Shown here piece after piece: positions 18,465 to 36,936 of a stretch of DNA of 37,871 nt. Numbering within the stretch: the first letter of the stretch is position 1; the number at the start of each line of letters is the position of its first letter. Under the pieces are notes generated by a model, which was given only the letters and a program-made list of their open reading frames with translations, had not been told where the DNA came from and searched no databases. The position numbers were made by a program, and so were the translations under genes. Source of the DNA: a virus (taxonomy: Duplodnaviria; Caudoviricetes); IMG/VR virus record IMGVR_UViG_3300007735_000693, positions 1 to 37,871 of that record; one strand, given 5' to 3'.

Positions 18465-18492
18465 AGTATATCATAATTATTTACTTTGTCAA
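18465..18492 (-). promoter_or_regulatory. Sigma70-type promoter
   Basis: Minus strand TTGACA-N16-TATACT with TGn extension; the -35 overlaps the HNH stop codon. Confidence 0.7.
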
Positions 18493-18953
18493 CTATTTTT
18501 ATAAGTAAATAAAACCCACTCAGCAAATCTAATTAACTCCATAGATGTGGCATTATGTTTCATTGTGTTAGCTTTGTGGCTTATTACTCTTACGTTACCT
18601 TTTAAATAACCTTTGGAATTATCTATTCTATCTAGTGATGGAGAATTAGAAGTAGGTCCTGTGCTTTTTCCTTTAGTATAAGTTTTAACTATTGGAATAC
18701 CTAGTATAGGGCATATGATAGGTATATCTATATCTGATTTATCTATATTAAACTCAAGTCCTTTTTTCTTTGCTCTTCGTTTTGCCATTGAACATAAAAC
18801 TCTTTCAGGATGTTTTATTCTGTAGTTAGCACTATGTTCTGCATAATCAATATATTTTTCTTCTTTATATTTTTTAATCTTTTCCATATTTTTATTACGC
18901 CATTCTTTATAGTATTCTCGTCTATCTTTATGCATCGTTAAATTCCTTTTCAT
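18489..18953 (-). CDS. HNH-family (homing) endonuclease
   Basis: AKRRAKKKGLEFNI, CPILG, SPSLDRIDNSKGY..GNVRVIS..AN.MK. Confidence 0.85.
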   Translation of the reverse strand: MKRNLTMHKDRREYYKEWRNKNMEKIKKYKEEKYIDYAEHSANYRIKHPERVLCSMAKRRAKKKGLEFNIDKSDIDIPIICPILGIPIVKTYTKGKSTGPTSNSPSLDRIDNSKGYLKGNVRVISHKANTMKHNATSMELIRFAEWVLFTYKNS

Positions 18954-19177
18954 AAAGTCTTTATAAAGTCTCTATATTCTTGTCTATCCAAATACATTTT
19001 TAATACTGCTTTTACATGTGTTAGTTTTTTTGCATCTATTTTGGCATCTTCATAATCGGGTTCTTTTAAAAAGTCTACTAAACATTCAACATAGTTCATT
19101 AAATCTGTAATCACTACCTCTCGGACTTCCTCTTCACTTAATACAATATATTCATTTCTTATTGTTTGTTCCATCAT
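18950..19177 (-). CDS. Hypothetical protein
   Basis: 75 aa, translationally coupled on both sides. Confidence 0.65.
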   Translation of the reverse strand: MMEQTIRNEYIVLSEEEVREVVITDLMNYVECLVDFLKEPDYEDAKIDAKKLTHVKAVLKMYLDRQEYRDFIKTL

Positions 19178-20730
19178 TCCGCAAACTCCTCCTTGTATAA
19201 ATCAACTAATTTAGTATGCGTATCAATTTTACCTTGCAACATTTTGTAAATTTTTTGTTCGACAGGCGAACCTTGTAGGTGCACTACGGTCATCTTATTT
19301 TTCTGTCCAGCACGATCAACACGTGCACAACACTGTATGTATGTTTCAACAGACATAACAGGTGACCAAAATACAACTACGTTAGCTGCGTGGAGTGTAA
19401 CGCCATGTGATGCAGCTTGAGGTTGTATTACCAATACTTGTGGGTCTTTCTTTTCTTGGAAGTTTTTAAATATCTCTGAACGATTATTCATAGATACATC
19501 GCCATGTATTGCAGCGCATGTGATATGGTCTTTGTTTAACTCTGTCATAATTTTTTCAATACTATGTCTAAAAGGACAGAATATGAGAACTTTGTGGCTA
19601 GCTTCTTCAATAATTTCTTTAAGAGCAGTCATGCGGTTAGATATATCAAACTCGATAATCTCTTGTGTATCTGAATAGATAGCCCCCGCACTTACTTGTA
19701 GGAGTTTAGTAAGCATAACACCTGCGTTGACTACAGTAATCTCTTCACCTGAAGCTTGCATATACATATCTTTCTTAAGCTTCTTATAATACTTTTCTTG
19801 TTGTGGTGTGAGAGGGACTTCTCGTGTTGTATATAACACATCAGGTAAGTCAAGACATTCTTCTTTAGTATAACGAATGGCAGGTTGTAGCGTTTTAAAT
19901 ACTATATCCTGCGCATTAAATCTAGGCACCCAGGTGAACTGGCTGACTTTCTGCATTACCATATCCTTAAATGTTCCTGCATATTTGGGAACGGATGCGG
20001 GGTTCACAAGTCTAGCCAGTCCATATGCGTCAGCTGGTGATTGAGCAGCGGGTGTTCCTGTCATAAGCCATATCCACGTGTTAGGTGTTACTACACGATT
20101 TAATGACTTCCAGCGACGTGTCGTGACGGTTTTAATATAATTGGCTTCATCAACCACTATTAAATCAAAACCGCCAGATTTAATTTCTTTCTCTACTATT
20201 TCTACACCATCATAATTAATTATAACTACGTCTGTGTTTTCTGCAAATACTTTTTTTCTTTTTTCTGCACTGCCATGAGCAATACCTACACTTCTATGCA
20301 TAGCAGTTTTAAAGAAGTCTGATTGCCATGCTGCCTGCATAATAGATAGTGGGCACACTACAAGCATGCGTCTAATCTTACCTTGGTTCATTAAGTAATC
20401 AGCTGCCCATATAACTGCTGATGTTTTGCCTGTGCCTGCTTCACTTAAACAATATGCACGTCTATGTGCAGATAGAAAAGTAGCAGTGGTTTTTTGATGA
20501 TCAAAAGGTTTATGAATACCTGGAAAGTTATAGTCACGTGTTATAGGAGAAGGTGGGTTCTTAACCTTCATGTCAGACAGGGTGATGACTTCGTCTAATC
20601 CCCAATTAACAGCTACTTGAGTGACACCATTCTCGTATGTCTTAACGATTTTACTCTTTGGTATCTTATCTATAATTAATTCAGGGCGTTTTGTATTTAC
20701 TATCAACGCCTTATCTTTGTATACTTCCAT
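19174..20730 (-). CDS. SNF2-family (SF2) helicase
   Basis: EAGTGKT, VVDEAN, MTGTP, HGVTL..A, ARVDRAGQ; start moved to MEVYK (20730) because AGGAG lies at 20736-20740. Confidence 0.9.
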   Translation of the reverse strand: MEVYKDKALIVNTKRPELIIDKIPKSKIVKTYENGVTQVAVNWGLDEVITLSDMKVKNPPSPITRDYNFPGIHKPFDHQKTTATFLSAHRRAYCLSEAGTGKTSAVIWAADYLMNQGKIRRMLVVCPLSIMQAAWQSDFFKTAMHRSVGIAHGSAEKRKKVFAENTDVVIINYDGVEIVEKEIKSGGFDLIVVDEANYIKTVTTRRWKSLNRVVTPNTWIWLMTGTPAAQSPADAYGLARLVNPASVPKYAGTFKDMVMQKVSQFTWVPRFNAQDIVFKTLQPAIRYTKEECLDLPDVLYTTREVPLTPQQEKYYKKLKKDMYMQASGEEITVVNAGVMLTKLLQVSAGAIYSDTQEIIEFDISNRMTALKEIIEEASHKVLIFCPFRHSIEKIMTELNKDHITCAAIHGDVSMNNRSEIFKNFQEKKDPQVLVIQPQAASHGVTLHAANVVVFWSPVMSVETYIQCCARVDRAGQKNKMTVVHLQGSPVEQKIYKMLQGKIDTHTKLVDLYKEEFAE

Positions 20731-20746
20731 GCAATCTCCTAGTGAT

Positions 20747-20786
20747 AAAAATAGACGTGTCACCGAGAGAGGTAGTGACACGTCTA
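20747..20786 (-). terminator. Intrinsic terminator-like hairpin just upstream of the helicase RBS
   Basis: Perfect 12-bp stem TAGACGTGTCAC/GTGACACGTCTA, 11-nt loop, followed by TTTTT on the minus strand. Confidence 0.75.
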
Positions 20787-20870
20787 CTGACTACACGTTA
20801 ACACACAGCACGAAAGCGAATAAGAGCTGCTGTTAACTGACGTGGTTTTGCCGCACTCACGCCTGGCGGT
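20747..20870 (-). ncRNA. Candidate structured cis-regulatory leader RNA (pseudoknot + hairpin + terminator)
   Basis: GC-rich intergenic region with stems CCGC/GCGG, GGCGUG/CACGUC, GUUAACA/UGUUAAC, CAGC/GCUG and the 12-bp terminator. Confidence 0.55.
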
Positions 20871-20874
20871 TGAT

Positions 20875-21150
20875 CTATTTCTTTTTAGTAACATTCCTTT
20901 TCATCGAATGATCGCTGTTGCGTGGGTAAGAACTATTAGCACTCTTACTTTTAATACGCATATTGCTAGGTGTATTACTGCCACCTTTACTTAAAGGAAC
21001 TATATGATCAACATCCATACCATCTCCCTTATGCACTTTACCAGCTTTTATCATCATTCGTCTAGCTTTATTTCTAGCAACCCTCATTTTTATTTGTTCT
21101 GGTTTTGCTTTGTATTCGTTTTCTTTTTGATAATCTCTTTCTTTAGCCAT
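20875..21150 (-). CDS. Small HNH endonuclease with Arg-rich N-terminal helix
   Basis: RDY.KE..RVARNKARR..GDGMDVDHIVPLSKGGSN..SNMR....AN. Confidence 0.85.
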   Translation of the reverse strand: MAKERDYQKENEYKAKPEQIKMRVARNKARRMMIKAGKVHKGDGMDVDHIVPLSKGGSNTPSNMRIKSKSANSSYPRNSDHSMKRNVTKKK

Positions 21151-21172
21151 ATACATCCTTTAAATTTATTTG

Positions 21173-21229
21173 TAAAGCACTCTAGGTCAAATCAAGGACC
21201 CTTAATAACAACCTTGCTAAAGTGCTTTA
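21173..21229 (-). other. Long intergenic RNA hairpin
   Basis: Minus strand UAAAGCACUUUAG/CUAGAGUGCUUUA (13 bp, one G-U) enclosing CAAGG/CCUUG. Confidence 0.55.
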
Positions 21230-21246
21230 AAAATATGCACCCTATA

Positions 21247-25147: not shown

Positions 25148-25159
25148 AACTCTCTCCTT

Positions 25160-28685: not shown

Positions 28686-28703
28686 TTTCTCTCTCCTTAA
28701 AAA

Positions 28704-31206: not shown

Positions 31207-31229
31207 TTTGCTTTCTCCTTAATGTTAAA

Positions 31230-33022: not shown

Positions 33023-33047
33023 GATGCTCTCTCCTTAAATAAAAATA

Positions 33048-36909: not shown

Positions 36910-36936
36910 AATGCTCTCTCCAAAAGTTAAATAAAT

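Follow-up and report, generated by a model that had tools for sequence, protein, structure and literature searches.

The described family to which the RNA analyzed here is most closely related is the Proteo-phage-1 motif, an orphan family of phage and prophage settings, which we take to come from the set of Weinberg et al. 2017. Rfam holds it as RF03044, of the type 'Gene; sRNA'. The searched part of the main text of PMC5737381 (Weinberg et al. 2017) does not name it, and our literature search, in which the supplements that may describe the family were covered incompletely, found no paper naming Proteo-phage-1 or RF03044. The motif had no hit in the searched part of the supplements of PMC10690425, and may be among the 10,000 candidates of that paper. 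Its core is a stem with a U-W-A-G...AG-UG loop, an A-rich linker ending in AAC, a strand complementary to the loop, and then A-GCC. The locus described here has the same core, also in a phage. It differs from Proteo-phage-1 in that HNH coding sequence occupies the place of the 5' hairpin with its internal loop and GNRA-type tetraloop, and in that the first stem (S1) and its loop are shorter. Furthermore, the Proteo-phage-1 model stops before the P3 helix, the G bulge, the anti-Shine-Dalgarno (anti-SD) loop and the 3' hairpin of the family described here.

The window, i.e. the whole stretch of 37,871 nucleotides that was analyzed, is a linear virus record that is ∼60% complete. Virion and ejection proteins are encoded on its plus strand. 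The minus strand carries genes for a DNA polymerase, an exonuclease, a small HNH protein and a helicase, and, farther upstream, a block of small genes that includes an AAA ATPase and a DUF2201 protein. The RNA element begins 5 nt past the HNH stop codon (20877-75, -) and is followed by the helicase gene, whose ATG is at 20730 (-). The helicase has no relative above ∼40% identity among annotated phages, and a blastn search of the element region against annotated phages gave no match. A second endonuclease gene (PHROG 3322; 18489-18953, -) lies downstream of the helicase. The gap between the exonuclease and HNH genes (21160-21246, -) is non-coding and contains a long imperfect inverted repeat and a promoter-like TTGACC-16-TAAATT; ∼100 nt of this stretch are skipped in related contigs of three runs, indicating that it is optional.

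Table 1. Features of the RNA element, its neighbors and its candidate targets in the window.
Feature	Position	Strand	Basis
Small HNH-family gene, 91 aa	20875..21150	-	PHROG 4590, HNH families, Pfam HNH
Pseudoknot stem S1 and loop: CCGC 20869-66 / GCGG 20854-51	20851..20869	-	sequence, covariation
Pseudoknot stem S2: GGCGUG 20863-58 / CACGUC 20844-39, one G-U	20839..20863	-	sequence, covariation, relaxed-descriptor hits
P3: 7-bp helix, bulged G 20804, 5-bp helix, 16-nt pyrimidine-rich loop	20797..20837	-	folding, covariation
Candidate seed 1, GCUUUC in P3 loop, matches ATPase ribosome-binding site (RBS)	20812..20817	-	unpaired probability 0.72-1.0
Terminator-like hairpin (13 pairs, 11-nt loop) and U5, predicted RNA 3' end	20747..20787	-	sequence, folding
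Candidate seed 2, CUCUCUC in terminator loop	20765..20771	-	unpaired probability 0.96-1.0; loop kept in 39 close relatives
Helicase Shine-Dalgarno (SD) AGGAG	20736..20740	-	direct sequence reading
SNF2-type DNA helicase gene, neighbor but no fixed partner of the RNA	19174..20730	-	PHROG 62
Candidate target GAGAGAG, RBS of 76-aa gene	36914..36920	-	sequence match
Candidate target GAGAGAG, RBS of 55-aa gene	33027..33033	-	sequence match
Candidate target GAAAGC, RBS of 348-aa AAA ATPase gene	31210..31215	-	sequence match
Candidate target GAGAGAG, RBS of 175-aa gene	28689..28695	-	sequence match
Candidate target GAGAGAG, RBS of conserved 64-aa gene	25150..25156	-	sequence match
Matching RBS words: GAGAGAG, GAAAGC (window); GGAGAAGU (G498); UGAAAGGA (G506)			

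The element is an RNA fold of ∼123 nt, consisting of a pseudoknot and two hairpins, with covariation in homologs. The initial annotation had placed a pseudoknot, a hairpin and a terminator on the minus strand, 5 nt after the HNH stop, and direct reading finds every sequence feature that it named in its place. The S2 region, which carries conserved AG, AG-UG and AAC junctions, shows homology to Proteo-phage-1, namely to its 3' half. P3 pairs 20837-26 with 20809-20797 (-), and a G precedes its 3' strand in 61 of 64 diverse homologs. The arms of the terminator-like hairpin (20787-75 and 20763-51, -) form 13 pairs including one terminal G-U, not the 12 counted originally; the hairpin and its U5 (20751-47) are present as described. 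The spacer folds with a z-score of -2.88, a stability equaled by none of 200 shuffles, and the core pattern has a single occurrence in the window, with none in 100 shuffles.

S1, S2 and P3 covary across many phages; the structure is real. In an alignment of 56 homologs, hand-picked from 92 and with S2 columns partly fixed by the search pattern, 92.2% of the pairing cells are paired (80.3±0.6 in shuffles), with values of 86% for S1, 100% for S2 and 91% for P3. Both sides have changed in 3 of 5 S1 pairs, 2 of 6 S2 pairs and 11 of 12 P3 pairs (16/23 overall), so that the pseudoknot and the hairpin behind it, both proposed earlier from the window only, are borne out. Since S2 was partly fixed by the pattern, the covariation test was redone on loci picked by protein only. 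Protein-based scans had yielded 160 rows of loci at first. In the loci picked in this way, 87 distinct matches to a relaxed descriptor were obtained, every one of them on the strand of the genes (four look like chance), compared to one in the reversed-sequence control. These loci add new S2 pair types at five of the six positions, including variants outside the search pattern (GGUACG/CGUAUC, GGUGCA/UGCAUC and GCGGGU/ACCCGC). The core is present in 41 of 79 distinct HNH-downstream spacers, and pattern scans added viral and metagenome copies, as well as two from Methylophilaceae. In homologs, S1 may be long and bulged, and the linker before the second S2 strand may hold inserted hairpins. The G-U pairs of the fold fix the strand of the element, as the initial annotation had noted for the single G-U in S2.

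An extra hairpin 3' of P3 is found in most distant homologs (L280, L428, L554, L665, L685 and many others), with CGUAA, ACGUCAC, ACGAGAC or GGAAAGAC loops. In many relatives, this is a GNRA-like hairpin similar to the 5' hairpin of the Rfam form, where C-GUAA-G precedes the knot; L695 carries both hairpins. The swap between the two positions could be a permutation or reflect a separate module. Two distant HNH loci with another gene order (L130 2526-2720 and L132 1033-1230) combine the knot variant GCGGUA/UACCGC with an ACGAGAC hairpin. At the position that the element takes up behind the HNH stop, two close relatives (L035 1355-1390 and L112 435-470) have small knots that resemble the H-type and are unrelated in sequence (AACGU/ACGUU with GCUCAA/UUGAGC or GGUCU/AGACC), followed by the same kind of C/U-loop terminator; neither of our two models of the element, R1 and R2, matches these knots.

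The core of the element is a divergent branch of Proteo-phage-1, and the initial annotation, which recognized no known family, was wrong on this point. The Rfam search suggested at that stage gave no Proteo-phage-1 match to the window at E≤10, the 42-bit gathering threshold not being reached, and no family match for the window and the first homologs; the link to RF03044 came through further homologs. The first weak match was L437 (29.8 bits); its hit and that of L502 (29.3 bits) lie at the same site as the element. L391/L695, of which L391 was found using the window's pattern, scores 49.2 bits and is the only one of 20 homolog-bearing records above the cut-off. Thus, with a bridging sequence above the cut-off and the window without a match, the window RNA is a divergent relative that does not qualify as a member by score. 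Models R1 and R2 were built with the three bridging sequences left out and match them at the same site, R1 at 45, 24 and 18.3 bits and R2 at 34.7, 31.4 and 22.4 bits. Reciprocal detection failed, as R1 and R2 do not recover L704 or L705, the strongest Rfam members, which were found in 2 of 151 genomes. Compared column by column, the window has the hairpin loop ...UWAG[S2]AGUG and a 3' AAC[S2']AGCC tail able to close the pseudoknot. As to a setting in phages or prophages of Proteobacteria, the window carries phage genes, and homologs occur in two Methylophilaceae assemblies and in P22. L704 and L705 run on, beyond the end of the Rfam model, into a P3-like helix with a C/U-rich loop, which indicates that the catalogued model is incomplete.

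The P22 copy (L718; NC_002371, 40196-40310, +) lies just after rha and is unannotated. It consists of S1, S2, P3 with an ACCUCC loop, and the 3' hairpin. Its model score is weak (13.7 bits, E 0.057), and Rfam gave no match at this site. The 150-nt stretch is near-identical in 165 phage records, including HK106, HK446, Sf6, ST64T and BTP1, and in 1121 of 5426 complete E. coli genomes. The BTP1 copy is not among the eight STnc60xx RNAs of the lysogen table in the searched part of PMC7067206. No paper was found that places the core 12-mers in an RNA context, or that deals with the P22 site or with the mechanism proposed below.

The element is not tied to the helicase. The initial annotation had assigned it to the helicase operon, an assignment that does not hold among homologs, where copies are also found behind primase, polymerase and island genes or stand by themselves. 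Upstream genes include primase-helicase, polymerase A, HTH and sortase-like genes, and those downstream encode helicases, YqaJ, T5orf172, small terminase, DEAD, HRDC and head-tail connector proteins. The element lies within 30 nt of a stop codon in 38 of 64 diverse homologs; some copies are located in 5' leaders (L304 type, L314 and L221), and the L277 copy stands alone, followed by a terminator and a convergent MscS gene. It is present in 3 of 151 Methylophilaceae genomes, and an order-level scan with R2 (E≤0.05) found it in 6 of 151, three of these looking weak; these counts rule out a core host element. Copies in small-genome Methylophilaceae-like DNA (L276, L296, L300, L313, L331, L278, L287 and L322) precede YqaJ or T5orf172 genes, pointing to phage-derived islands. 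In four relatives that lack the RNA (L542, L543, L545 and L546), a near-consensus promoter ends a few bases before the helicase ATG, which suggests a leaderless helicase mRNA.

The predicted open loops of the element are complementary to ribosome-binding sites of the same genome, and this complementarity follows a trend across lineages. Of 64 diverse homologs, 48 have UCCU or CUCC in their P3 region (16.7±3.6 in shuffles). The anti-SD loop persists in copies that have no downstream gene able to use it (L277, L297 and P22), and it fits its own downstream SD no better than the SDs of other homologs (n=49, p=0.42); pairing in cis with the downstream gene was rejected for this absence of covariation. 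GAGAGAG occurs six times in the window, once as the terminator loop's own complement and four times as the RBS of an upstream gene on the same strand. Five clade relatives repeat this pattern, and G165, without that loop, has no GAGAGAG in an RBS. Across 12 genomes, the RBS of the AAA ATPase gene is AGGAGAGAG in eight; the two genomes that carry GCUUUC in the P3 loop, and only these, have AGGAGAAAGC, and the two whose terminator loop lacks CUCUCUC have AGGAGUA. In G153, the loop has a 12-nt perfect match to one early RBS.

A cross-lineage test, run without choosing k-mers, showed that the pyrimidine-rich k-mers of the 3' domain match start regions of their own genome better than those of other lineages (16 lineages; p=5e-5 for 7-mers and 0.005 for 8-mers), and also when P22 and two GC-rich records were dropped (13 lineages; p=4e-4 and 0.03), with shared ancestry and base composition only partly controlled in all loop-RBS tests. 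The window clade is mid-field here: 7 of 25 outside genomes reach the window's score, and several clade members do worse. Within the clade, two perfect-run measures gave p=0.002 and 0.0005 for 12 related genomes, and 0.056 and 0.019 for the nine left after collapsing near-identical loops; the energy measure is not significant (p=0.45 and 0.81), and the late-gene control is null. Matches to loop words, chosen post hoc as k-mers but not by position, fall in the upstream same-strand block: 10/31 versus 0/47 elsewhere in G498 (GGAGAAG), 6/40 versus 0/87 in G506 (GAAAGGA), 5/39 versus 0/43 in G165 and 4/32 versus 0/15 in the window. Control SD 7-mers equally confined to that block amount to 1/33 in G498, 2/26 in G506 and 2/39 in G165, and to 7/19 in the window. 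The candidate seeds are only 6-7 nt long, no long antisense or guide target was found in the own genome across 11 genomes, and G514, G163 and P22 show no clear loop-RBS pattern. Ranking by whole-loop duplex energy, which placed the own genome first in 2 of 10 cases, one of them an artefact, was uninformative.

Based on these matches, we tentatively propose that the element acts in trans as an antisense RNA that damps translation of the phage's own upstream, presumably early, genes, the likeliest of the readings considered and one that we hold to be quite possible, if short of probable. The RNA would be expressed at the end of the polymerase-exonuclease-HNH transcript of replication genes, and transcription would end at the U tract, the predicted RNA 3' end. 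It may then be freed as a separate molecule; long-range action from an uncut 3' UTR would look alike. The predicted open pyrimidine loops would pair with extended SD sites of the upstream genes and, by repressing rather than protecting them, lower their translation as replication starts. The knot could serve as a stabilizing or protein-binding scaffold. The strongly conserved knot junctions and the G bulge are not explained by this model.

The initial annotation read the same features as a switch, in which CACGUC pairs either within the pseudoknot or with the terminator 5' arm and so gates the helicase operon. CACGUC is indeed perfectly complementary over 6 bp to GACGUG (20784-79, -) in the window genome, and is present a second time in the terminator's own 3' arm (20759-54), but the antiterminator pairing is not conserved. 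Among the 39 distinct close relatives that share the window's terminator loop, it is intact in 14, has one mismatch in 24 and two mismatches in one, whereas S2 is complete in all 39; the covariation sought in relatives is thus seen for the pseudoknot pairs and not for the antiterminator. In favor of the switch, S2 and the terminator arm have changed together in the L104-type clade, a single event, and 18 of 83 homologs (the 92 minus nine that are poor or cut), from three lineages, have a full partner for the S2 strand within 45 nt, compared to 4.3 in shuffles. However, in nested models, which leave pseudoknots out, the antiterminated fold reaches -34.3 kcal/mol versus -49.1 kcal/mol, ∼15 kcal/mol uphill, and its probability peaks at 0.35 as GACGUG emerges and is ∼0 afterwards. 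A heuristic search finds a terminator behind only 25 of 64 diverse homologs; most homologs have none or an unrelated one, and L035 keeps the same terminator arm behind its different small knot. Because the pairing is broken in 25 of 39 relatives while S2 never is, and given the energy cost and the few terminators, we regard the switch as unsupported and very hard to credit. An attenuator or riboswitch would be expected to show a conserved alternative pairing of sensor and terminator, and functionally coherent downstream genes; the former is intact in 14 of 39 relatives at a 15 kcal/mol penalty, and the neighbors belong to unrelated pathways. A ligand- or protein-binding aptamer acting in cis through lineage-specific platforms would account for the conserved junction bases and the copies in 5' leaders, but is highly improbable considering that the downstream genes (from helicases, YqaJ and T5orf172 to small terminase, HRDC and head-tail connector) have no common pathway, that only 3 of 151 Methylophilaceae genomes carry the element, and that stand-alone copies exist. 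The position of the knot 5 nt past the HNH stop, together with the AAA AAG AAA end of the HNH gene, is also what a signal for stop read-through or frameshifting would look like. This is scarcely conceivable, as in the window each of the three frames meets a stop within 30 codons, the distance from the stop to the helicase has no fixed phase (19/10/9 of 38), and copies also follow promoters and terminators.

An element working in cis, through which the downstream genes are expressed from the upstream transcript by put- or EAR-like read-through or by mRNA processing or stabilization, with the terminator only trimming the flow, is rather unlikely but agrees with several observations. A sigma-70-like promoter within 130 nt before the helicase occurs in 0 of 59 loci with the element and in 28 of 63 without, an exclusion to be expected in part, since most of the scanned 130 nt is taken up by the element and the loci share ancestry. 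A strong promoter begins at the knot in L416, and RNA-only antitermination is described for HK022 put and Bacillus EAR in the searched part of PMC8632103. Nevertheless, copies that stand alone, or that precede a terminator and a new promoter, have nothing to serve in cis, and the anti-SD loops are left unexplained; in L169, L177 and L192, a promoter-like TTTACA-16-TATACT follows the terminator, ahead of the helicase. The compact knot, near-invariant purine junctions, variable peripheral helices, unrelated neighbors and proximity to stop codons would also suit a new class of self-cleaving ribozyme, which would cut the phage polycistronic RNA and might also release the small RNA. The GNRA-like hairpin, which precedes the knot in the Rfam form but comes after P3 in many phage copies, adds to this resemblance. 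Such relocated hairpins are seen in permuted ribozymes. However, L695 has a hairpin on either side, so that a permutation is not established; the window has neither hairpin, anti-SD loops would be unexpected, and the window and 34 homologous or candidate loci match no Rfam ribozyme family (hammerhead, twister, pistol, hatchet or HDV-like), which makes a ribozyme improbable. Hatchet, twister, pistol, type III antitoxins and tmRNA PK1 were also compared and set aside on topology.

Returning to the trans-acting antisense RNA, a wider and more doubtful extension is that Proteo-phage-1 and its relatives are widespread modular phage regulators, in which a fixed pseudoknot scaffold carries interchangeable anti-SD loops, retuned in each lineage to an early-RBS tag, so that one RNA could switch off a class of early genes; the scaffold would then be present, unannotated, in P22, HK-type coliphages and about one fifth of complete E. 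coli genomes. What is new is a 3' domain for a known orphan family and the first functional hypothesis for that family. Proteo-phage-1 thereby gains its missing 3' half and a concrete function open to testing, and the tempting riboswitch reading of the helicase gap is removed as unsupported. Since the same architecture occurs in P22 and in E. coli phages and genomes, the question can be addressed in model phages rather than in an uncultured one. If the proposal is true, phages time the shut-off of early genes by an RNA that reads a private SD tag.

Known systems share parts of this arrangement. The T4/T2 gene 32 operator, like the window element, is an H-type pseudoknot in the replication region of a phage. 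The gene 32 knot belongs to a single gene, which is autoregulated. The window family, in comparison, has unrelated neighbors and a terminator between the knot and the RBS. HK022 put RNA and Bacillus EAR are likewise structured RNAs within operons, upstream of terminators; put differs, according to the searched part of PMC8632103, in being a double hairpin near the promoter that binds RNA polymerase, and it has no sequence or Rfam match to the window element. DicF of the Qin prophage, as described in the searched part of PMC12197685, is a small RNA freed from a prophage operon by termination and processing that acts by base pairing in trans, both release and trans action being predicted for the window RNA; it differs in being Hfq-dependent, 53 nt long, directed at host mRNAs and without a pseudoknot. 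The c4 antisense RNA of P1/P7, covered in the same part of PMC12197685, is also a phage RNA whose target-complementary loops block translation at a ribosome-binding site of its own mRNA. Whereas c4, which has no Rfam match in the window, is dedicated to a single target (ant), the window RNA has a pseudoknot and short candidate seeds for an SD tag that is shared by several genes.
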